The notes under the pieces: model-generated
The model's input: only the letters and a program-made list of their open reading frames with translations
The model's database searches: none
What the model was told of the DNA's origin: nothing
Part shown: in pieces, positions 3,177-46,039 of the stretch
How the letters are laid out: every line of letters begins with the position of its first letter
Numbering within the stretch: the stretch's first letter is position 1
Position numbers and translations under genes: made by a program
Assembly: GCA_964405095.1 (NCBI GenBank)
Contig: CAYOML010000007.1
Span: forward strand, 1-51,122
Direction: 5' to 3'
From: an uncultured Candidatus Saccharibacteria bacterium
GTDB lineage: Bacteria > Patescibacteriota > Saccharimonadia > Saccharimonadales > EFPC-124
Length of the DNA stretch: 51,122 nt

Positions 3177-4031
3177 TTAAGCTGTTGCACCAGCTTCTAT
3201 GGCGTCGAGAGCTTCTGGTGTGGTAGTAACCTCGGTGGGAGCCGAATCTGGAGTCTCTACGCCAATAAAGCGCATCATCTCTACAATACGACTGGCTGAC
3301 ACTTTGGCTGTGTCTGCCACGTCCCAGTTAAATTCTTTAGCGAGTAATTCTTGTACGTGGTCGACGGTAACACCGTTGGGCTGACTTGAGTCAAAGCCCA
3401 TATCGGCTGGAGTGTATCTGCTGGTTGCACCGGGGCGGGGTGGATATTCCAAAAGACCGTGCCTTGTAATGACTTCGCCGTCAGCTCCATTAGTCTCTAC
3501 CCTGTATGCCAAGCCTCGTACTGCGGGTATGGCCATTTCGAGCGTCTCTGCAAGACGTTCCTGCCTTCGTCCGCCCCATCTTGGGATTTGGGAGATTTTA
3601 GCACCAAGTCCATTAACAGCCCGAGCATCAACCAAGGCCATGACCTCTGCCCTAAATGGCACAGTGACTGCTTCTGTGATGTCACCGCCAACAATTGGGG
3701 TTTTACCGGCTCTGTTCCAGACAAATAAGTGGCTTCCGCCATTAGCTTCGGAAGGTTTGATTCGTAGATCGCCTACACCTAGACCTCTTAGTGTTGCAAA
3801 AGCTTCCTGGCACGATTCAACAGCCGGAGCGCTTTGAGTCTCTAGCCACTCCTGACGAGTTCTAGCGTGCTCATCACCGATCATTGTCTTTAATCGTCTC
3901 TCTGCTCTTGTGGGAGCTAACACTCTCTCAAGACTGGCAGCTGCAAGTCCAAACGCTTGAGCCACGTCACCGTCATCTTTTATCTCTAATCTATCAAAAC
4001 CAGGCCAAGCTATTCTGTTTCTAGAAGACAT
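3177..4031 (-). CDS. Hypothetical protein (284 aa), no confident family assignment
   Basis: Long ORF with an AAGGAG RBS 7 nt upstream of ATG. Moderately high GC. No recognisable motifs. Confidence 0.5.
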   Translation of the reverse strand: MSSRNRIAWPGFDRLEIKDDGDVAQAFGLAAASLERVLAPTRAERRLKTMIGDEHARTRQEWLETQSAPAVESCQEAFATLRGLGVGDLRIKPSEANGGSHLFVWNRAGKTPIVGGDITEAVTVPFRAEVMALVDARAVNGLGAKISQIPRWGGRRQERLAETLEMAIPAVRGLAYRVETNGADGEVITRHGLLEYPPRPGATSRYTPADMGFDSSQPNGVTVDHVQELLAKEFNWDVADTAKVSASRIVEMMRFIGVETPDSAPTEVTTTPEALDAIEAGATA

Positions 4032-4095
4032 AGGAACTCCTTATGAATAATGAGCTAGGATAACATTATTTAAAGCCATCGTCAATAACGTGTTA

Positions 4096-6459
4096 TTATC
4101 TTCCCAACTTTGTCTCTAGATTATTGATATCAATTGTTGTCTTTACTACTGTGTCTGGTGCAAGCGAAACACTGTCGATGCCGGCTTCAACCAAAAAGCG
4201 CGCGAATTCGGGGTAGTCTGAAGGTGCCTGACCACAGAGGCCGATCTTGACGTGTTTTTGTTTGGCAACCTTAATCACGAGGCGGATTAGGGCTTTTACG
4301 GCCTCGTTATTTTCGTCATAAACGTGGGCAACGGTGTGGTTGTCTCTGTCGACTCCGAGTGTAAGCTGTGTTAAGTCGTTGGAGCCGATAGAAAAGCCAT
4401 CGAACAGTTCAGCAAACTGCTCGGCCAAAATGACATTGGAGGGGATTTCTATCATCACATAGGCTTCAAACCCGTTATCCCCGCGCTTTAGGCCGTTCTT
4501 TTCCATGATGTCGAGCACTTTTTTGGCTTCGGTCAGATCTCGGCAAAATGGGACCATGGCTTTAATGTTTGTAATGCCCATGTCGTCCCGGGCCTTTTTG
4601 AAGGCTTTACATTCTAGTTCAAAGGCTGGCCGATATTCTGGAGAATAATAGCGGCTTGCGCCCCGCCAGCCAATCATCGGATTATTCTCGGCCGGCTCAA
4701 ATTGCTTGCCGCCTATTAGGCCGGCGTATTCGTTGGTCTTAAAATCACTAAATCTTATGATGACGTCGTTAGGGTAAAATGCCGCACCTAAAATAGCTAT
4801 GCCTTCGGTCAGCTTGTCGATGAAATACTGGGCTTTGTTGGTGTAGCCTGCGGTAAGGCGGTTAATAACCTCGCGCGTTGCTTTATCTTTAACTTCGTCA
4901 AACCTAAGCAGAGCAAGCGGGTGGATTTTGATATGCGAGTCTATTATAAATTCCTCGCGGGCCAGCCCAACACCGTCGTTTGGGATCATCGAATATTGGA
5001 AGGCGTGGTCGGGGGAACCAATGTTCATCATAATTTTGGTCTTTGGCCGCTCAAGATTTTCAAAACTTGTCCGGTTGACCCTAAACTTCAGTTCGCCTGC
5101 ATATACAAAACCTTCATCTCCCTCGGCGCAGCTAACTGTTATGGGCGACTTATTAGCAATCTTGGCTGTTCCGTTACCTGTACCCACTACACAAGGAATG
5201 CCCAACTCACGCGACACAATTGCCGCGTGGCAGGTGCGCCCGCCTTTGTCGGTCACGATGGCGCTGGCTTGCTTCATGATTGGTACCCAGTCGGGGTCGG
5301 TCATTTCGGTTACTAATACGTCACCTGTAGTAAATGAACTAATATCCTTGAGGTCCATAATTTTGCTGGCTTTGCCGGCACCAATTTTATTACCAACGCT
5401 CGTACCTTTGGTAAGCAGATCGCCCTTTTCTGTCAGCTCGTATTCTTCGACGATATTTAGATTCTTGCGTGATTGCACGGTTTCGCCGCGGGCTTGCACT
5501 ATGTAAAGCTTGCCATCGTCTTGGTCGAGTGCCCATTCGATGTCCATTGGGTGGCCATAGTGGTTTTCGATCTCGATTGCCCAGCGGGCTAAGGTGGTGA
5601 CTTGTTGGTCAGTGATCGAAAAACGTTCTTGGTCCTTTTTAGAGACGGCGATGTTTTTGGTCCGACTGCCAGCAATTGGAATCATCTTCATTTTTTTAGC
5701 GCCAACTTTTCTTTTAAGGATGGCCAGCGTTGGTTTAAAGACAGTAAATTCGTCGGGGCTCACCCGGCCTTGCACAATATTCTCGCCCAAGCCGTAAATA
5801 GAAGTCACCACAACGACATTACGGAAGCCTGTTTCGGTATCGATGGTAAACATAACACCAGCTGCTTCTGAACGCACAGCCACCATTTGCTGAATGCCAA
5901 CCGAAAGCGCCACCTTCATGTGTGCGAACTTGTTTTCGACCCGGTAAACTATTGCCCGGTCGGTAAATAGCGAAGCAATGCAGGCTTTAGTAGCCAGCAG
6001 TACATCTTTTTCGCCCTTTACGTTTAGGTAAGTTTCTTGTTGGCCAGCGAACGAGGCGTTAGGTAAGTCTTCGGCAGTGGCCGATGAGCGCACGGCCACC
6101 ACAAGGTTGCTCTGGCCGCAAACTTGGCTTAACTCGCGGTAGCCCTTAAGAATTTCTTCTTCGAAATCGGCTGGTAACTTGGCTTTAACAATTGTTTCGC
6201 GGATTTTGGCGCCGCGTTTTGCAAGTTCTTTAACGTTGGTTACATCCAGGTTGTCTAGTAATTGTTCGATTTGGGCTTGCAAGCCGGTTTGTTTAAGAAA
6301 ATAAAAGTAGCTGTCGGATGTTGTGGCAAAACCGTTCGGCAAGTTTACACCTTTTGGTGCTAGGTGTTTGACCATTTCGCCCAGCGAGGCGTTTTTACCG
6401 CCAACTTGGGGAATGTCAGTAAGGGCGATTTCTTTAAAAAACTTTATGTATCTGTACAT
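4096..6459 (-). CDS. ppsA: Phosphoenolpyruvate synthase (pyruvate, water dikinase)
   Basis: The N-terminus MYRYIKFFKEIALTDIPQVGGKNASLGEM is diagnostic. Phosphohistidine (CHAAIVSRELGIPCVVG) and PEP-utilising domains are present. Confidence 0.92.
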   Translation of the reverse strand: MYRYIKFFKEIALTDIPQVGGKNASLGEMVKHLAPKGVNLPNGFATTSDSYFYFLKQTGLQAQIEQLLDNLDVTNVKELAKRGAKIRETIVKAKLPADFEEEILKGYRELSQVCGQSNLVVAVRSSATAEDLPNASFAGQQETYLNVKGEKDVLLATKACIASLFTDRAIVYRVENKFAHMKVALSVGIQQMVAVRSEAAGVMFTIDTETGFRNVVVVTSIYGLGENIVQGRVSPDEFTVFKPTLAILKRKVGAKKMKMIPIAGSRTKNIAVSKKDQERFSITDQQVTTLARWAIEIENHYGHPMDIEWALDQDDGKLYIVQARGETVQSRKNLNIVEEYELTEKGDLLTKGTSVGNKIGAGKASKIMDLKDISSFTTGDVLVTEMTDPDWVPIMKQASAIVTDKGGRTCHAAIVSRELGIPCVVGTGNGTAKIANKSPITVSCAEGDEGFVYAGELKFRVNRTSFENLERPKTKIMMNIGSPDHAFQYSMIPNDGVGLAREEFIIDSHIKIHPLALLRFDEVKDKATREVINRLTAGYTNKAQYFIDKLTEGIAILGAAFYPNDVIIRFSDFKTNEYAGLIGGKQFEPAENNPMIGWRGASRYYSPEYRPAFELECKAFKKARDDMGITNIKAMVPFCRDLTEAKKVLDIMEKNGLKRGDNGFEAYVMIEIPSNVILAEQFAELFDGFSIGSNDLTQLTLGVDRDNHTVAHVYDENNEAVKALIRLVIKVAKQKHVKIGLCGQAPSDYPEFARFLVEAGIDSVSLAPDTVVKTTIDINNLETKLGR

Positions 6460-6531
6460 TTTGTCCCCAGGTTAATGAACATATACATTATAGTCATTAG
6501 CAGTTTAAAAGAATAGGATTATAATCGGCGC

Positions 6532-7149
6532 ATGGACAAGATTAGTAAAATATCGGCTTGGCTTGGTGCGGGTTCAATAAATATCTTTGGCCCACCATTT
6601 GCCGGCAAAGACACCCAGGGCAAGATGTTGGCCGATTTATTGGGCGGGGTGCTGATAGGCGGCGGTGATATTCTGCGCCACCATCACGACCCAGAAAAAA
6701 TTAAAGCAATAATGTCTGAGGGTGGGCTTATACCCAGCGATTTTTATTTGCATTTGGTGCTGCCTTATTTATCTCAGCCAAAGTTTAAAGATAAGCCGCT
6801 AGTACTTGATTCGGTGGGGCGTTTACCGGAAGAGGAGCCGGTTGTACTGCAGGCCACGACTGCTTCTGGCCACCCACTTAAGGCTGTTGTTTTGTTGAAG
6901 CTATCCGAGGAAGAAATATGGCGGCGATTTGATGAAGCCAAAATCGAACACGACCGCGATGGGCGCAGTGATGACCGGCGTGAAGTTCTAAAAACCCGGC
7001 TAAATAAATTCCGTGATAAAACCATGCCGGTTATAGAATTCTATCGTGATAAAGGTTTGCTTATAGAGGTTGATGGTGCCAAATCTCGCGAGGCAGTCGA
7101 GGACGAGATTTTAGAAAGTTTGGTTGCCTGCGCTATGTCTCCCCGCTAG
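6532..7149 (+). CDS. Adenylate kinase-family nucleoside monophosphate kinase
   Basis: P-loop variant IFGPPFAGKDTQ and overall AK-like layout. A TATAAT box lies 7 nt upstream of the ATG, suggesting a leaderless mRNA. Confidence 0.65.
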   Translation: MDKISKISAWLGAGSINIFGPPFAGKDTQGKMLADLLGGVLIGGGDILRHHHDPEKIKAIMSEGGLIPSDFYLHLVLPYLSQPKFKDKPLVLDSVGRLPEEEPVVLQATTASGHPLKAVVLLKLSEEEIWRRFDEAKIEHDRDGRSDDRREVLKTRLNKFRDKTMPVIEFYRDKGLLIEVDGAKSREAVEDEILESLVACAMSPR

Positions 7150-7192
7150 GCCGCACTGCATGTGTCACAGTGCGGCCGTCGCGGTTGTCGGG

Positions 7193-7525
7193 TCAGGCGG
7201 CGTTTGCCGGTGTTCTGGCGTCGATGAGCCTGACGAGGTGCATGATGCCCGAGATTTCGACCATGCCACACTCTTCGTGCAACCACCGCCCAAAAGCGGT
7301 GATGGCACCGTCTCGCCTGGGGTTGGTCGCGGACAGTGCAAGCACTGCGTCGCGCCTGGCCGTCAGCTGAGTGTGAAATTCTCGAAGCTCAGTTGCTGTG
7401 ACCTCGCCCAGCTCCTCGCTCGCGGTCCGAAAGAACACATCCAGATCGAAGGTGTTGGTCGGGTCTTCCGCGAACTTAATTGCTAAGCTCGCCAGAATCC
7501 GTTTGACAGTTTTGCCGTTAGCCAT
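7193..7525 (-). CDS. Hypothetical small protein in a high-GC patch (start moved to the Met with a GAAGGGA RBS)
   Basis: The ORF is in a ~60% GC segment. The internal ATG at 7525 has a good RBS. Confidence 0.35.
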   Translation of the reverse strand: MANGKTVKRILASLAIKFAEDPTNTFDLDVFFRTASEELGEVTATELREFHTQLTARRDAVLALSATNPRRDGAITAFGRWLHEECGMVEISGIMHLVRLIDARTPANAA

Positions 7526-7595
7526 TGGGACTTCCCTTCGGTTGACTCCAACTCTTTCCTTATACAACCTATTTGCAATTTATTCAATCTTGTTG

Positions 7596-7717
7596 GTCTG
7601 CACCACCCCCATATGCTTATTTCAACGGTCTGGATGCCGAGTGCAGCCGGAGCAGCCCAAATAAGGGCTGCCCCGTGCGGAATGTGCCGTTGGAGTAAAC
7701 ATATGGGGGTGGTGCGG
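7596..7717. mobile_element. MITE-like element: ~122 bp with ~29-bp near-perfect terminal inverted repeats (TGCACCACCCCCATATGCTTATTTCAACGG ... CCGTTGGAGTAAACATATGGGGGTGGTGCGG) flanked by a 7-bp direct repeat CTTGTTG
   Basis: Inverted repeat 7599-7628 pairs with 7687-7717. Direct repeats lie at 7589-7595 and 7718-7724. An inner GCAGCCC/GGGCTGC hairpin is present. Confidence 0.55.
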
Positions 7718-7769
7718 CTTGTTGATACCTAATGACTGAGTTTACGCACGCTTATGCTTAAATAAATGC

Positions 7770-9002
7770 GTGGCATATAAATTTAACAAAAAGACGATCA
7801 AAGACGTTCCGATTGACAGCGCGACAGTTCTGATGCGTGCCGATTACAATGTGCCGCTAACCGATGATGGCAAGATTGCCGACGATTATCGTATGCTGCA
7901 GTCGCTGCCTACGCTTAATTATCTAATACGTGCCGGCTGTAAGATTGTGATTACTTCGCACCTGGGTCGCCCAGATGGCAAAGTTGTGCCAAAAGAAAGT
8001 CTGGAACCTGTAGCGGCGCACTTGAGTGAACTATTAAGTAAACCTGTCGGCTTTGTGCCGGATTGCGTTGGCGATCGCGTAAAAGTGGCGGCCAAACGTT
8101 TGAAACCTGGCGGCGTATTGCTACTAGAAAACGTGCGTTTTCATCCCGAAGAAGAAGCTAACGACGCCAAGTTTGCCAAACAAATAGTCGATAGCTCCAC
8201 AGCCACCTACTTTGTACAGGATTGTTTTGGGGTAGCTCACCGGGCACACGCCAGTATTGTCGGAGTAACACAATTTTTGCCATCGGTGGCTGGGTTGTTA
8301 CTTGAGAAAGAAGTTACCATTATTCTTCGGGCCATGCACACCCCCGAGCGTCCACTGGTTGCCGTGCTTGGTGGCGCCAAAGTCAGTGATAAAATTAAGA
8401 TTTTGGAGAAGCTTATTGAACTCGCCGACCAGATCGTGATTGGCGGCGCTATGGCCAATACCTTTCTTAAATACAAAGGTTTGCCAGTCGGTAAAAGTGT
8501 CTGTGAAGAAGGTCAGGATGCCGAGATCGAGCGTGTTTACAGCCTGGTGCGGCAAAAAGTTGGCGATGAGCGGATTGACGACTTTTTACTGTTGCCAGTC
8601 GACGTGGTTGTTGCACCAGAAATTAGTCCTAATCAAAAGCGGGTTGTAGCCGACGTGCATGATGTTAAGTCTGATGAGTATATTTTAGACATTGGTACCC
8701 GTAGCATCGAAGCTATGTTAGAGCACTGTAAAAACGCCAAAACTGTTATTTGGAACGGAACGCTTGGTTATGCCGAATACGTGGTGTTTGCTTACGCTTC
8801 GGCCAAACTTGCTATGCAGTTGGCTGAGCATAAAAACACAGTGTTTAGTTTAGTAGGTGGTGGTGACACGGCCGATTTTGTGGTGCACTGGGATAGTAAG
8901 AAGGGACAGAGTTTTGGGCATGTTTCGACGGGTGGCGGTGCCAGTCTGGAGCTGATGGCAGGTGACAAGCTACCTGGAGTTGAAGCACTGTTAGATGCTT
9001 GA
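7770..9002 (+). CDS. pgk: Phosphoglycerate kinase (GTG start)
   Basis: VAYKFNKKTIKDV...RADYNVPL N-terminus and full-length PGK motifs. Confidence 0.92.
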   Translation: MAYKFNKKTIKDVPIDSATVLMRADYNVPLTDDGKIADDYRMLQSLPTLNYLIRAGCKIVITSHLGRPDGKVVPKESLEPVAAHLSELLSKPVGFVPDCVGDRVKVAAKRLKPGGVLLLENVRFHPEEEANDAKFAKQIVDSSTATYFVQDCFGVAHRAHASIVGVTQFLPSVAGLLLEKEVTIILRAMHTPERPLVAVLGGAKVSDKIKILEKLIELADQIVIGGAMANTFLKYKGLPVGKSVCEEGQDAEIERVYSLVRQKVGDERIDDFLLLPVDVVVAPEISPNQKRVVADVHDVKSDEYILDIGTRSIEAMLEHCKNAKTVIWNGTLGYAEYVVFAYASAKLAMQLAEHKNTVFSLVGGGDTADFVVHWDSKKGQSFGHVSTGGGASLELMAGDKLPGVEALLDA

Positions 9003-9096: not shown

Positions 9097-9178
9097 GCGG
9101 CCACGTGGTTTGCCCCTAGTTTTATTTTTTAGGGTACTAAAAAAGTAAAACTGGGGCGGCCCCACCACGTGTCACCCC
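9097..9178 (-). repeat. Copy 1 of an ~85-bp palindromic repeat family (GGGGTGACACGTGG...GGGGCGGCCCC...AT-rich centre...TAGGGGCAAACCACGTGGC), in reverse orientation relative to copy 2
   Basis: The reverse complement aligns base-for-base at both ends with 24069-24154, with an identical 14-mer GGGGTGACACGTGG. Confidence 0.7.
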
Positions 9179-16111: not shown

Positions 16112-16890
16112 GCATGCAAAATAAAGATTTAGGCCAGCACTGGTTGTTCGACGAGGAAAGCCTCGATGGTGTTTGCAGCGCTGCCCATTTAAGCATGGCC
16201 GATACTGTGCTTGAAATTGGACCGGGTCTCGGGCCGTTAACTAATAAACTTGTTACGCGCGTAAAGCAGGTTGTAGCAGTAGAGTTAGACATAGAGCTGG
16301 CCGGAAGGTTGTCAGAGCGTGTCAAAGCCAAGAACTTGCAAGTTGTACATGGCGATATTGTTGGCTTTGATCTGGCACGGCTACCGGTTGGCTACAAAGT
16401 TGTCGCCAATGTTCCTTACTACCTCACCAGCAAGATCATCAGGTTATTACTAGAATCGCCGACACCACCGAGCATCGCGGTATTGTTGGTACAAAAAGAG
16501 GTGGCCGAACGACTGGCAGCCAAGCCTGGAGATATGAGCATTTTAGGAGTAAGTGCCCAGTTGTATGCCAAAGTACGACTTGGCATTGTGGTCACCGCCG
16601 ATAAATTTGATCCGCCGCCGAAAGTAGATTCACAGGTAATTATTTTTGAACATCGCCGAGAGCCACTATTTGGTGATATGGACGTCAAATTGTTTTTCCT
16701 AATAGTTAAAGCCGGTTTTGGCGAAAAAAGAAAGACTCTTCGCAACAGTTTAAGCGGCGGGCTTAATCTTACCAAAGCCGAATCGGAGAAGCTTTTACAA
16801 AACGCAGGGGTTGATGCGGGCCGTAGGGCAGAGTCGTTAACACTTGATGAATGGTATGCACTTAGTAAAGCTTATGGCTCAATAAACTAG
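16108..16890 (+). CDS. rsmA: 16S rRNA (adenine1518/1519-N6)-dimethyltransferase RsmA/KsgA
   Basis: LGQHWL..., the SAM-binding EIGPGLGPLT motif and NVPYYLTS. Confidence 0.9.
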   Translation: MSMQNKDLGQHWLFDEESLDGVCSAAHLSMADTVLEIGPGLGPLTNKLVTRVKQVVAVELDIELAGRLSERVKAKNLQVVHGDIVGFDLARLPVGYKVVANVPYYLTSKIIRLLLESPTPPSIAVLLVQKEVAERLAAKPGDMSILGVSAQLYAKVRLGIVVTADKFDPPPKVDSQVIIFEHRREPLFGDMDVKLFFLIVKAGFGEKRKTLRNSLSGGLNLTKAESEKLLQNAGVDAGRRAESLTLDEWYALSKAYGSIN

Positions 16891-16898
16891 AGCCTTTG

Positions 16899-16931
16899 GG
16901 ATGGCGCCGACCACCATGGTCGGCGCCATCC
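16899..16931. terminator. Bidirectional terminator hairpin GGATGGCGCCGACC-ACCATG-GGTCGGCGCCATCC
   Basis: A 14-bp perfect inverted repeat lies between the convergent genes rsmA and the BldC-like gene. Confidence 0.55.
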
Positions 16932-16940
16932 TTCGAAGGG

Positions 16941-23025: not shown

Positions 23026-24075
23026 ATGAGTGGCGGGGTAGATAGCAGCCTGAGCGCGGCACTTTTGCAAAAACAAGGCTACGATGTGACCGGTGTATAC
23101 ATGAAGAATTGGACACAAGATCTGCCCGGGATGGTTTGTCCTTGGGCCGATGACCTGGCCGACGCCAAACGCGTGGCCGTCCAACTTAATATTCCATTTA
23201 AGGTGTTTGATTTCCAGAAAGAATACAAACAAAAGGTGGTCGACTATATGATCGCCGAATACAAGGCCGGTCGCACACCCAACCCCGATATTATGTGCAA
23301 CCAAGAGGTAAAATTCGGGCTGTTTTTGCGAACTGCACTAGACGATGGTGCCGATATGATCGCCACTGGCCATTATGCTAAGGTCAACGACGGTCAATTA
23401 TTTATGGCTGTCGATAAAGCCAAAGATCAAACCTACTTTTTATACCGCGTTACCCAAAATGCACTCACCAAAACTCTTTTTCCGCTTGGTGAGCTTACCA
23501 AAACCGAAGTGCGCAAAAAAGCTATCCAACTTGGCTTGGCCACAGCTACCAAAAAAGATTCACAGGGCATCTGTTTTGTTGGCAAAGTTGGCATTAAAGA
23601 TTTTTTGCAGCAATATGTCAAGGCAGAGCCGGGCGATATTATTGATAAACGCTCCGGCCAGGTTCTTGGTCAGCACGAAGGCGCTATTTATTATACTTTT
23701 GGGCAGCGTCACGGTCTGGGAGTTGGCGGCGGTCTGCCGTATTATGTCGCCCGTAAAGATATGACTAAGAACATAGTCTACGTTACATCCGATCTTAACG
23801 ACGATTCCCTATGGCGCAGCAAACTAACCCTTAGCCAGCTGCACTGGATAGATCAAAAACCGGCAACCAATGAAAAATATAGCGTACGTTTACGCTATCG
23901 GGCCTCTCTGATTGACTGCAGATTGAGTTTGCATGGTAATATCGCAGAGGTCATACTCGCCGAACCAGAACGGGCCATTACTCCAGGGCAATCGGCTGTC
24001 GTCTATGATGGCCACCAGGTGGTTGGCGGTGGGATTGTCGAACCTGATTCTCAAAACCCATCAAACACGGGGTGA
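23026..24075 (+). CDS. mnmA: tRNA-specific 2-thiouridylase MnmA
   Basis: PP-loop MSGGVDSS and the GICFVG catalytic Cys region. The stop codon TGA is provided by the first bases of repeat copy 2. Confidence 0.9.
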   Translation: MSGGVDSSLSAALLQKQGYDVTGVYMKNWTQDLPGMVCPWADDLADAKRVAVQLNIPFKVFDFQKEYKQKVVDYMIAEYKAGRTPNPDIMCNQEVKFGLFLRTALDDGADMIATGHYAKVNDGQLFMAVDKAKDQTYFLYRVTQNALTKTLFPLGELTKTEVRKKAIQLGLATATKKDSQGICFVGKVGIKDFLQQYVKAEPGDIIDKRSGQVLGQHEGAIYYTFGQRHGLGVGGGLPYYVARKDMTKNIVYVTSDLNDDSLWRSKLTLSQLHWIDQKPATNEKYSVRLRYRASLIDCRLSLHGNIAEVILAEPERAITPGQSAVVYDGHQVVGGGIVEPDSQNPSNTG

Positions 24076-24154
24076 CACGTGGCGGGGCGGCCCCAAAGTT
24101 TTTTATGTATTCCCATAAAAAATCTTTAGGGGCGGACCGCGTGGCAGGACCCGG
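24069..24154 (+). repeat. Copy 2 of the ~85-bp palindromic repeat family
   Basis: GGGGTGACACGTGGCGGGGCGGCCCCAAAG-TTTTTTATGTATTCCCATAAAAAA-TCTTTAGGGGCGGACCGCGTGGCAGGACCCGG. Confidence 0.7.
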
Positions 24155-24221
24155 CCATTGGTATCAGGTTTTGAGAGTCAAGTTGTCGAAAGTTCATAAG
24201 TAACGCGTTATACTCATAACT

Positions 24222-42392: not shown

Positions 42393-42453
42393 TGCGCAAG
42401 GGTTACACAACATTTTTATTGACTTACATCTGTTGGGGTGGTTTGATTAGGGT

Positions 42454-43032
42454 ATGATTGTGAGTTTCTCGGCGAGTTTAAGAACAATTGAACAAGATAT
42501 TGATATATACAAAAAGATTCTTTCTATATTACGCACTTTGGGGTGTTCAATTGCAAACGACTGGGTTGAATCAGCACGGCTTTACCAACTCAATAAATCT
42601 CGTGATAAGCCTGAGCAGGATTGGAGACACTTCTGTGAACATTCAAAGGCAGGTATCGAAAGCTCGGATTTAGCAATAATTGAAGGATCGGGCTTCGCTA
42701 GTTTTGGTGTTGGATACGAAGCGGGCTATGCAATAAAAATTAAAAAGCCGACTTTGATTTTAATAAAAAAAGAGGACATAAAAGTGTCATACGCTGCTGG
42801 TCTTGGCAATGATCTGGTAACTGTTGCCAGCTACACAAACGAGAATCTCGGGCGTATTATCAAGACCTTTGTAAAAGACAATTCAATTCGAAGCAAGGAT
42901 ATGCGTTTTAACTTCGTAATTGACAGACAGATCTACAATCATTTACGTAAAAAATCTTTTCGTACAGGTAAGACAAAGGCGGAAATTGTTCGCGATATAG
43001 TTTTGGAAGATATACACGGAAAAGGTATATAA
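42454..43032 (+). CDS. Paralog 1: Rcl/DNPH1-like (nucleoside 2-deoxyribosyltransferase superfamily) N-domain fused to a C-terminal ribbon-helix-helix (Arc/MetJ-type) domain; catalytic Glu conserved (GVGYEAG)
   Basis: SDLAIIEGSGFASFGVGYEAGYAIKIKKPTLILI compares with DNPH1 ADVVVAEVTQPSLGVGYELGRAVAFNKRILCL. The C-terminus KDMRFNFVIDRQIYNHLRKKSFRTGKTKAEIVRDIVLEDI compares with Arc MPQFNLRWPREVLDLVRKVAEENGRSVNSEIYQRVMESF. Confidence 0.6.
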   Translation: MIVSFSASLRTIEQDIDIYKKILSILRTLGCSIANDWVESARLYQLNKSRDKPEQDWRHFCEHSKAGIESSDLAIIEGSGFASFGVGYEAGYAIKIKKPTLILIKKEDIKVSYAAGLGNDLVTVASYTNENLGRIIKTFVKDNSIRSKDMRFNFVIDRQIYNHLRKKSFRTGKTKAEIVRDIVLEDIHGKGI

Positions 43033-43034
43033 AT

Positions 43035-43604
43035 ATGGTTATTCATCTTACGTGCTCGAGGGAATGTGTTGCTGAAAATATCGGCACACTTAGAAAAATA
43101 ATAAGCATCATTTACGACTTTGGTCATGTAGTTGCGAGGGATTGGATGGAGCCACACTACAGAAATATCCTTAAGAGCAAAAGCTCGGGTACCCCAGTCG
43201 AGGATATTTTCAGGTTGAACAATGAGGCTATAGATCGGGCCGATCTGGTGATAGTTGAGGGGTCGTACAAAAGCTTTGGCAACGGGTTCCAAGCTGCTAC
43301 CGCACTACAAAAAAAGAAGCCACTACTACTTCTTATAAGGCGAGGAAGTGATGAAAGTACTATATCGCGTAGTGCGGTTGACCCCTATCTTATTCGTAAA
43401 GAGTACGATGATACGTCACTCGACAAAATTGTTAAGGATTTCATACAAAATAATACAATGAGAACAAAAGATATGCGCTTCAATTTTGTGGCAGACAGGG
43501 CTACTAGTAGTCATCTAAGGTGGTTATCGTATAAATCTGGCAAAACAAAAGCAGAGGTTTTAAGGAATCTCATATTAGAGGATATAAGAAAATCGGATGA
43601 TTGA
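43035..43604 (+). CDS. Paralog 2: Rcl/DNPH1-like + RHH fusion; Glu position replaced by Gln (GNGFQAA)
   Basis: It starts 3 nt after the paralog-1 stop, so the two are probably an operon. It has the same architecture and the same C-terminal KDMRFNFVADR...GKTKAEVLRNLILEDI. Confidence 0.6.
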   Translation: MVIHLTCSRECVAENIGTLRKIISIIYDFGHVVARDWMEPHYRNILKSKSSGTPVEDIFRLNNEAIDRADLVIVEGSYKSFGNGFQAATALQKKKPLLLLIRRGSDESTISRSAVDPYLIRKEYDDTSLDKIVKDFIQNNTMRTKDMRFNFVADRATSSHLRWLSYKSGKTKAEVLRNLILEDIRKSDD

Positions 43605-43862
43605 GCAAGCAATATCTGTGATCTGTGGCTATACCCCTCCTAGCAAGTAAATGGCGATCGATTTGCTATACTAGCCTTAAAGAGGCAAAAAGATGGGAAA
43701 AAATTACCAGATTCATACGCGATGTTTGGCTTACGATACTACTCCTGTTGATCATGTAGTGTCGGGAACGGAAGATAATCTATGTTTCAAGCCTGTGTTG
43801 GCTTAATCTGTTTGATTGTCTGTTTGAGGAGGGTGGAGATTTAATATAGGTTCTCTTATTCA

Positions 43863-43892
43863 ATGACATGCACCTTGCCTTAGCAGTATAAT
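43863..43892 (+). promoter_or_regulatory. Near-consensus sigma70-type promoter: -35 ATGACA, 18-bp spacer, -10 TATAAT
   Basis: Read directly from the sequence. It lies 14 nt upstream of the GTG at 43906 and 74 nt upstream of the ATG at 43966. Confidence 0.5.
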
Positions 43893-43965
43893 GTAGACAG
43901 GGGGCGTGTGTGAACAACAAAAAGGGCTTTCTTTCAGGTATAAACTGATATATTATTCTAGGTCT

Positions 43966-45399
43966 ATGGGTAAGGTTGCGGTAAATTCTGGTCATATAAA
44001 TATACTTCTAGTGGGAGGAGTTGGTCTTTGGTCGGAGAAAAATCATATTCCCAATCTTGCTGCGTTGAAACAGAGAGGTTATAAAGTGAAATTGGTGGCG
44101 GTTTGTGACATACAAGACCCAGCCCAACATAGCGATCGCAAGAATCTTCAGAAGATGATGAGAGAGGATATGTCCAAGTGGATAAGTGTTTCTAATAATA
44201 ACCCAACGCCACTCAGTCAGCTGGATAAACTTCTCGAGACGGAACCACTTGATCTCGTAATAATTGCCTGTAATCCTGTTGCTCACTTTGGTTATGCTAT
44301 GTGGGCAGTAAAGAATAATCTACATGTTATATGTGACAAACCCTTACTGGACGTCGCTAACTCTGCTAGTGACGTTAACGCTGCAAGAAGAATATGGAGT
44401 AACTATGAGAAACTAGTTGAGGCATATCTTACGGCGAAAAAGGAAACCCCTCATCTAAATTTCAATCTGGTCCTAAGGCGCAGGAGCCTACCCGCGTTTA
44501 CACTCGTTGCTGATCGTCTAAGATACGTAGCTGAGCAATATGGTGCAGGAATCAACCATATAAATATTCTGAATCATGGCGGAATATATAAATACCCTGA
44601 GGAAATGGAAGGTTATGGAGCGCATGATTTCTCCTCAGGTGTTGGTTCCCTCTCACATTCCAGTTACCATTATCTTGATCTCTTCAACTGGTATCTCAAA
44701 AGTGCTAAAGGCCCAGTTAAATATATTGTTCCTCGTCTCACAAATATACTCCGCATTGGAGATTATTTAGATACAGAGGCGTACAAACACATTAAAGCTG
44801 TCAATACACATACTAAAAGTAGTATGAAAAAACTGCCAAAAGAAGTACTCGCATGTGAACTCGACGTAGCATTTAACATTCTTTTTTACGATAAGTCGAT
44901 GCGTCCTGTCGGAGATGCGAACTTCATCGCTAACCACCTTAGCTTCAGCCCTCGCACCAGAGATTTTGAGGCCGGTATAACGGAACCGGCACAATTTGTC
45001 GGAGGCGGAAGAATCTCGCATCTTTACGTGGACATCCATCAATCGGGCCTACAAAATCTACAATTAATAAAAAACGATGTTACCTTTGAAGGCTCCAATA
45101 TATTAGTACAAACGCGCACGCACCCTGGTATTGAAGCGTTAAGCAGTCATGAGACGATCTATTTTGACGATGCATACCGCAATACTGACTATAGTATGGA
45201 GGAGATTCTTAGGTCAGTGGTTGATGCAATTTTGGCCAGACAGTCGGTGATTTCGACAATGATTCCTAGTCTCTTAGACGATAAGGCCAACGCGCAGTTA
45301 TTCGCTAAATTCTATGAAATTGTCGCGCTTGACTATAGTGAGAAGCAAAATAATAAATCGAAAGTATATAAAGCGCAGGATCTAATAGAACTAACCTAA
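43966..45399 (+). CDS. Gfo/Idh/MocA-family NAD(P)-dependent oxidoreductase-like protein (alternative GTG start at 43906)
   Basis: N-terminal Rossmann ILLVGGVGLWSEKNHIPNL...VKLVAVCD...LDLVIIACNPVAHFGYAMWAVKNNLHVICDKPL matches the GxGxxG...D...(E/D)KP consensus of the family. Confidence 0.55.
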   Translation: MGKVAVNSGHINILLVGGVGLWSEKNHIPNLAALKQRGYKVKLVAVCDIQDPAQHSDRKNLQKMMREDMSKWISVSNNNPTPLSQLDKLLETEPLDLVIIACNPVAHFGYAMWAVKNNLHVICDKPLLDVANSASDVNAARRIWSNYEKLVEAYLTAKKETPHLNFNLVLRRRSLPAFTLVADRLRYVAEQYGAGINHINILNHGGIYKYPEEMEGYGAHDFSSGVGSLSHSSYHYLDLFNWYLKSAKGPVKYIVPRLTNILRIGDYLDTEAYKHIKAVNTHTKSSMKKLPKEVLACELDVAFNILFYDKSMRPVGDANFIANHLSFSPRTRDFEAGITEPAQFVGGGRISHLYVDIHQSGLQNLQLIKNDVTFEGSNILVQTRTHPGIEALSSHETIYFDDAYRNTDYSMEEILRSVVDAILARQSVISTMIPSLLDDKANAQLFAKFYEIVALDYSEKQNNKSKVYKAQDLIELT

Positions 45400-45454
45400 G
45401 TTTTGATGCGCTATATGTACTAAACGTTCTGCTGTGTTGTACTATTAGCTCATA

Positions 45455-46039
45455 ATGAAAATCCACTTTGCTGCATCTAAACATAACATTCAAGAAAACA
45501 TTAAGTATTACCGTAGGATTATAAAAGCCATCCACAGTAGTGGTCATACTCTTACGCACGATTGGGTAGATCCGTCATATGAGCTATCGGTAGGAAGCGG
45601 TGATTATTCTGAGTTGGATTGGAACTCTATTTATCGGGAGAACATGGAGGCTCTAGCCCGAGCTGATATAGTGATTGTCGATAACACCGTGAGCAATTTC
45701 GCTGTTGGATATATGGTGGCGATTGGGCTGCAGCATAAAAAACCGACATTGATTCTTTTTCGAAACAAAGCCATCGAGGGCACAATGGCATCTGGGATGG
45801 ATGAGAGTCTGGTTACATTTAAAGAATACGACGACAAGAATCTGGAGAGCATAGTCGAGGCCTTCATAGAAGGGAACAAGATTGACACCAAAGACATGCG
45901 CTTCAACTTCTTCATAGATCGTCCAATCTACAACTACCTACGTTGGGCTGCATACAAAACCGGCAAAACCAAGGCCGAAATTCTCCGCGATCTAGTTTCT
46001 AAAGAAATCGATAAAGCTAACGACGTCAATCAGCTTTAG
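45455..46039 (+). CDS. Paralog 3: Rcl/DNPH1-like + RHH fusion; Glu position replaced by Met (AVGYMVA); best overall match to DNPH1 N-terminal block
   Basis: IHFAASKHNIQENIKYYRRIIKAIHSSGHTLTHDWV compares with DNPH1 LYFCGSIRGGREDRTLYERIVSRLRRFGTVLTEHV. ADIVIVDNTVSNFAVGYMVAIGLQHKKPTLILFRN compares with ADVVVAEVTQPSLGVGYELGRAVAFNKRILCLFRP. The C-terminal RHH is KDMRFNFFIDRPIYNYLRWAAYKTGKTKAEILRDLV. Confidence 0.6.
   Translation: MKIHFAASKHNIQENIKYYRRIIKAIHSSGHTLTHDWVDPSYELSVGSGDYSELDWNSIYRENMEALARADIVIVDNTVSNFAVGYMVAIGLQHKKPTLILFRNKAIEGTMASGMDESLVTFKEYDDKNLESIVEAFIEGNKIDTKDMRFNFFIDRPIYNYLRWAAYKTGKTKAEILRDLVSKEIDKANDVNQL

Follow-up and report, generated by a model that had tools for sequence, protein, structure and literature searches.

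The window analysed here, a stretch of 51,122 nucleotides, carries a lysM-TM7 RNA, and the named relatives of its pgk protein belong to the Saccharimonadales, which identifies it as DNA of the Saccharibacteria (CPR). Within it, adk is followed in order by a 10-bp stem-loop, an ORFan on the opposite strand, a 72-nt spacer, a palindromic element, a 52-nt spacer, pgk (Pfam PGK, E 9e-129) and tpi (Table 1). The original prediction had placed a MITE-like sequence at 7589-7724, between a GC-rich gene on the minus strand and pgk; the ORF list and the Pfam assignments confirm this location, and the sequence is present as described, its boundaries now being refined to 7598-7717. The element has 59% GC and the spacer is about equally AT-rich to its left (39% GC) and to its right (37% GC), a pattern to be expected if a block was dropped into a single spacer. 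The element holds no credible open reading frame, the sole one that crosses it having 37 codons and lacking a ribosome-binding site.

Table 1. Coordinates of the features in the adk-pgk region of the window.
Feature	Position	Strand	Sequence or remark
adk	6532-7149	+	
Approximate lineage-specific segment relative to L158	7126-7745	.	about 620 bp; ORFan and element
Perfect GC-rich stem-loop	7149-7177	.	10 bp; between the stops of adk and the ORFan; terminator-like, without a T run
GC-rich ORFan	7193-7525	-	110 aa from ATG; context, not shown to be part of the element
Putative 9-bp target-site duplication, left copy	7589-7597	.	CTTGTTGGT; abuts 7598
MITE-like element, whole-length imperfect palindrome	7598-7717	.	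120 bp
Left terminal inverted repeat	7598-7628	.	CTGCACCACCCCCATATGCTTATTTCAACGG; arm 7600-7628 widened by 2 nt from the RNA fold
Core inner hairpin	7648-7675	.	CGGAGCAGCCC / AAATAA / GGGCTGCCCCG; arms 7648-7658 and 7665-7675
Right terminal inverted repeat	7687-7717	.	CCGTTGGAGTAAACATATGGGGGTGGTGCGG; from the repeat search and the fold
Putative 9-bp target-site duplication, right copy	7718-7726	.	CTTGTTGAT; abuts 7717
Conserved box, extended -10-like (TGnTTAAAT)	7753-7765	+	TATGCTTAAATAA; ends 4 nt before the pgk GTG
pgk	7770-9002		

The inverted-repeat search returned two 29-nt arms (7600-7628 and 7687-7715) that are 90% complementary and separated by 58 nt, and also the two 11-nt arms of the inner hairpin, which are 91% complementary and bear out the hairpin that had been proposed for the core. 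The terminal repeats are thus near-perfect, as had been claimed, but not with a single mismatch: three positions of the 29-nt arms depart from Watson-Crick pairing (C7616:A7699, T7620:G7695 and T7622:G7693), and only one does so if G:T(U) pairs are allowed. Two more pairs can be formed outward (C7598-G7717 and T7599:G7716), which brings the arms to 31 nt. The 31 pairs comprise 27 Watson-Crick, 3 G:T and 1 C:A, so that the arms differ by four transitions only, and 16 consecutive perfect pairs start at 7600. The ends of the element read CTGCACC... and ...GGTGCGG, and the whole element matches its own reverse complement with 71% identity over 116 nt.

The existence of the hairpin is confirmed, and no other structure in the 51-kb window stands out as strongly. 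Its predicted RNA fold reaches -79.9 kcal/mol on the plus strand (z -7.4) and -77.3 kcal/mol on the minus strand (z -9.2), and its DNA fold -40.0 kcal/mol (z -6.8), with none of 200 shuffles as stable in any of the three cases. In the whole window just two inverted repeats reach 18 nt or more with a span of up to 300 nt, the element being one of them, and a sliding 130-nt MFE scan ranks it as the top GC-corrected outlier (z -6.2). Just under it in the same scan come several gene ends (9100-9160, 16890-16940 and 2035-2070), where the MFE predictions give near-perfect stems that are unusually long, at 15-21 bp. Another long hairpin of rod-like shape is found at 24032-24194 (inverted-repeat arms 24041-24058 and 24167-24184; RNA MFE -69.8 kcal/mol, z -5.0). 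It covers the 3' end of an mnmA-like gene and has a metallophosphoesterase gene on its other side. The ends of its arms overlap the two copies of an 8-nt direct repeat, TTGTCGAA (24035-24042 and 24183-24190), and it shows neither an Rfam match nor sequence similarity to the element at 7598-7717. It may be another MITE-like insertion.

The direct repeat CTTGTTG, on which the original prediction had relied as the trace of transposition, is indeed present on both sides of the hairpin (7589-7595 and 7718-7724). These are two of the seven occurrences of this heptamer on the plus strand of the window, and when flanks of 12-20 nt are compared at random window positions, 0.2-1.5% of them share a repeat of 7 nt or longer (p 0.002-0.015). 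With the refined boundaries the repeat extends to 9 bp, its two copies being identical at 8 of 9 positions and directly abutting the element; the empirical p for this 9-mer match is about 0.001, allowing for lengths of 4-12 and for three choices of boundary. The combination of 31-bp terminal repeats with an abutting 9-bp duplication is a cleaner geometry than the earlier 7-bp version.

We also compared the locus with eight related pgk loci, obtained through pgk homologues at 70-82% identity, and the element is absent from all eight, as judged by gene spacing alone for the P0003 and P0006 contigs and by sequence for L156-L162. Sensitive blastn and nhmmer searches over the window and seven related loci recovered the element itself only, and neither the hairpin nor anything similar occurs in any related locus with DNA. 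The original prediction had named as evidence against itself orthologous loci with the same sequence, no flanking duplication and covariation typical of a functional RNA; no orthologous locus carries the hairpin. In the closest relative (P0003, pgk 82%) the order is adk(-), PPS(+), PK(+), pgk, tpi, with a gap of 55 nt between PK and pgk; in L156 (pgk 79%) and L161 (71%) PK is immediately upstream of pgk, at 26 nt and 4 nt respectively; and in L158 (pgk 81%) a mere 4 nt separate the end of adk(+) from the ATG of pgk. The adk DNA of L158 aligns to that of the window at 78% until about 7125, where the similarity ends, and because of this and of the short distance from adk to pgk in L158 about 620 bp of the window can be considered lineage-specific.

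Four other relatives carry a GC-rich ORFan upstream of pgk on the opposite strand, unrelated to that of the window by BLASTP, with 104 (L157), 105 (L159), 108 (L160) and 100 nt (P0006 contig) between the two. The corresponding spacer of the window is 244 nt long, and after subtraction of the 120-bp element and one 9-bp repeat it comes to 115 nt, close to the 100-108 nt of these four relatives. If the element were excised, the empty site would read ...TTCAATCTTGTTGRTACCTAATG...; none of the relatives shares the left flank of the window, and the exact empty site was not seen among the eight loci. More generally, the PK-pgk-tpi neighbourhood in Saccharimonadales is a hotspot of GC-rich lineage-specific ORFans, mutually unrelated and mostly on the opposite strand (L157:3336-3896, L159:2533-2895, L160:2446-2892, L162:583-2425 and 3805-4359, and that of the window), L162 having three paralogous membrane ORFans at this site. 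A GC-rich stem-loop follows the ORFan in all those checked (L157, L159, L160 and the window), and the distance from ORFan start to pgk start in the four relatives is strikingly regular.

Prokaryotic MITEs are defined as elements of 50-800 bp without a transposase gene, whose terminal inverted repeats measure 10-15 bp or more and whose target-site duplications measure 2-10 bp (PMC11602168). At 120 bp and without a transposase gene, with 31-bp arms paired at 27 of 31 positions by Watson-Crick rules and a directly flanking 9-bp repeat, the feature has each of these properties, and it also shows a presence/absence polymorphism among related pgk loci. On balance, therefore, we read it as the footprint of a small non-autonomous transposon with terminal inverted repeats (a MITE) of an undescribed family, or as an internally deleted IS remnant, a reading that we hold to be somewhat better than even.

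Two further marks of a MITE, repetition in its own or related genomes and an autonomous IS with matching terminal repeats and an equally long duplication, were looked for in the window and in several sequence collections without a find. Only one copy exists in 51 kb. Allowing up to 3 mismatches, the 16-nt terminus of the inverted repeats occurs in the window only at the two arms. No transposase was found among the ten accessory ORFs scanned in the window, and no matching terminal inverted repeat elsewhere in it. Outside the window, JGI metagenome contigs and IMG/VR gave zero matches to a gapped pattern of the two arms and to a 22-mer taken from an arm, and IMG/VR gave none to the inner hairpin, these scans demanding exact matches of 22-24 bases that diverged copies would escape. 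The 15-mer CACCACCCCCATATG gave 119 chance matches in the GTDB genome collection, none of them extending past 18 nt and none two-armed. A blastn search of 7150-7760 against phages and plasmids returned no match, and no predicted protein among 5.8 billion protein clusters overlaps the six-frame translation of the element.

The neighbouring ORFan raises the question of whether the hairpin belongs to it. The base composition of the ORFan at the three codon positions is of coding type (GC1/2/3 = 0.59/0.47/0.69), and its GC3, compared with 0.46-0.52 in the neighbouring genes, speaks for a foreign origin, so that it is probably a real and horizontally acquired gene. It has no detectable relative among 5.8 billion protein clusters or 1.84 billion representatives (word-indexed and exhaustive search) and no Pfam, PHROG or PADLOC family match, and a single-sequence AF2 model gives an uninformative helical bundle (pLDDT 66). 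A separate stretch of the window, 42400-46000, has a low GC content (39-42%, against about 49% for the window) and may have been acquired as an island; among its products are a GFO/IDH/MocA-type oxidoreductase and two proteins resembling nucleoside 2-deoxyribosyltransferases.

It could be argued that the hairpin is an integral part of a foreign ORFan segment of ~620 bp, as an operator-like, transcript-boundary or recombination site, and that the flanking repeat is coincidental or inherited from the donor. The ORFan and the hairpin adjoin, both stand at about 59% GC where the genome has 49%, and both are missing in L158, which together with the foreign composition of the ORFan and the hotspot character of the pgk neighbourhood makes this the best of the alternatives. 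We nevertheless regard it as unlikely. The direct repeat brackets the hairpin alone, with the probability given above, whereas the ends of the whole segment share no repeat of 6 nt or more; the AT-rich 72-nt spacer separates the ORFan from the hairpin; and the ORFan inserts of other relatives have no comparable hairpin on their 5' side. The ends also lack R boxes of the attC type, and no integrase was seen in a partial ORF scan. The shared GC content of 59% nevertheless counts against the transposon reading to some degree, as the element and the ORFan may have arrived together.

The original prediction had also suggested that the element donates promoter or attenuator activity to pgk, and this is not supported. 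A consensus scan of 7000-7900 found no promoter-like or terminator-like site in the element or beside it. The six loci that were aligned (the window and L156-L160) all have a box, TRTGCTTAAATAA (also written TGCTTAAAT), just ahead of the start codon of pgk, and it is kept even where PK or adk ends merely 4-26 nt upstream; the copy in the window comes 35 nt after the element. From its sequence this box would read as an extended -10 motif, and its position suggests a very short or absent pgk leader. Because the -10-like box is downstream of the element, there is no sign that pgk owes a promoter or an attenuator to it. Should the box be the promoter, the pgk mRNA would start beyond the hairpin, and the element is thus probably not part of the pgk transcript. 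The idea that the hairpin serves as an RNase III substrate would hold only if it were transcribed. The element does not appear to rewire pgk expression. An intrinsic terminator can likewise be set aside, the scan of 7000-7900 having returned no terminator-like site and the element being upstream of both neighbouring genes.

A functional structured RNA read from the plus strand, either a small RNA or a long pgk 5' leader folding into a rod of ~50 bp that RNase III could cleave, is improbable in the light of the same data. The plus strand does form one continuous rod of extreme stability, with 51 pairs including 6 G:U, compared with 43 pairs including 2 G:U for the minus strand, but this 6:2 asymmetry is not significant, the events being too few to tell an RNA from a DNA role. 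Against such an RNA count the absence of the hairpin from every relative, the lack of a promoter-like site upstream and of a terminator-like site downstream in the consensus scan, and the position of the conserved pgk box downstream of it, and with no homologue found anywhere a covariation test is impossible. As the original prediction had proposed, Rfam was searched with cmscan. No family reached the gathering threshold, which rules out SRP, 6S and the other described RNA families; with Rfam 15 and E values up to 10, only miRNA-precursor models appeared, at 13-19 bits against thresholds of 57-100.

The locus has a history of rearrangement that invites another explanation. The 51-kb window has no pyruvate kinase anywhere, and the adk-PPS block (4096-7149) is inverted with respect to P0003, for which reasons we consider the locus to be a rearrangement junction. 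At such a lineage-specific junction a quasi-palindrome could be made locally, as an inverted duplication by template switching with no mobility at all, and the existence of a single copy would be natural. Template switching, however, creates no flanking direct repeat, neither arm resembles sequence in any relative, and the core carries a nested palindrome of its own, so that we judge this origin highly improbable. One might also speculate that the hairpin is no selfish debris but a functional element tied to the repeated acquisition of unrelated GC-rich ORFans at the hotspot beside pgk, either as the recombination or insertion site of an undescribed cassette-capture mechanism or as a rod-like RNA by which the divergent promoters of ORFan and pgk are insulated or controlled. 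We give this a slightly smaller chance still; if it were true, the unrelated hairpin at 24032-24194 would be a second member of this functional class.

Logan contigs from run SRR9179563 contain the pgk protein and the ORFan of the window as well. In this independent assembly of the same run the sequence breaks at the hairpin centre, one contig (L002) ending at 7649 and the other (L001) starting at 7663. The break is symmetric, and the 13 central bases (7650-7662) are backed by the NCBI contig alone; low coverage or sequencing errors at the hairpin may be the cause, as may heterogeneity of the population. That the break betrays a false fold-back or a false join is scarcely credible, as each contig agrees exactly with its own arm and with a portion of the core, down to the differences between the arms, as the imperfect arms and the unique core are unlike a fold-back artefact, and as merely those 13 bases are without independent support.

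Among known systems, the Correia elements have TA as their target-site duplication and can form RNase III substrates when co-transcribed. MITEs of the Correia (NEMIS), ERIC and RUP types measure 100-160 bp, have terminal inverted repeats of ~26 bp, form long hairpins and lie in intergenic regions beside promoters, with tens to hundreds of copies per genome and a defined consensus (PMC3184786, PMC2229807). Our element shares with them its size, the length of its terminal repeats (~26-31 bp), the hairpin fold and the intergenic, promoter-side position. It differs from these highly repeated families by its single copy in the 51-kb window, and from Correia also by the target-site duplication.

In form, the closest analogue is MITEAba12 of Acinetobacter, a non-coding element of 113 bp with imperfect terminal inverted repeats and a 9-bp target-site duplication, inserted in AT-rich intergenic targets (PMC6382973). 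Our element resembles it in all these respects (~113-120 bp, non-coding, imperfect terminal repeats, 9-bp duplication, AT-rich intergenic target). MITEAba12 has 1-22 copies per genome, which means that a single copy is possible (PMC10969869). The likeness does not extend to sequence, in which the two have no similarity, nor to composition and architecture: MITEAba12 is 78% AT, has 16-bp terminal inverted repeats and a known parent, ISAba12 (PMC6382973), whereas the element described here has 59% GC, 31-bp terminal inverted repeats and a palindrome over its whole length, and neither a parent nor a second copy was found.

Two systems of another nature were also compared. Integron attC sites are, like the element, imperfect palindromes (57-141 bp), and the element likewise adjoins an ORFan whose composition is foreign. 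They were rejected: the ends show no RYYYAAC / GTTRRRY boxes, the nearest GTT motif (GTTGATA) failing the consensus; the hairpin adjoins the 5' end of the ORFan and is flanked by a direct repeat, not by inverted core sites; and no integrase or cassette array was seen in the window by the partial ORF scan. Invertons, in which a short promoter-region segment is likewise enclosed by inverted repeats, were rejected too, since the GC-rich 58-bp core folds into a hairpin of its own and the consensus scan shows no promoter-like motif in it, no recombinase gene was seen, and the end positions of the Logan contigs do not fit a flip at the arms.

Under the preferred reading, that of a non-autonomous transposon footprint, a transposase acting in trans would have bound the 31-bp terminal inverted repeats and cut the AT-rich target CTTGTTGRT with a 9-bp stagger, in the spacer from which the acquired ORFan and pgk diverge, and repair would have duplicated this target. 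Since the insertion, four transitions would have arisen in the arms and one between the repeat copies, because of which it is presumably not very recent. The element would now lie between two divergent promoter regions, upstream of the -10-like box of pgk. It is probably without a dedicated function, a neutrality that we infer, as we do the transposition event and its enzyme, from an anatomy, a flanking-repeat statistic and an absence from relatives that are themselves directly observed.

In a full-text literature search the terms 'Saccharibacteria' and 'miniature inverted-repeat' occurred together in no paper, and a search on the sample accession gave none either. If the element is a MITE, it would add one more small non-autonomous transposon footprint, in this case in a phylum of tiny genomes (Saccharibacteria / CPR). 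It is so far single-copy and of a well-known kind, would not surprise a specialist and opens no long-standing question. Its practical value is modest. For annotators and assemblers it is a warning, as the locus breaks de Bruijn assemblies, and it has a possible use as a strain marker. For the organism, it marks a lineage-specific, rearranged and insertion-prone junction beside core glycolytic genes.
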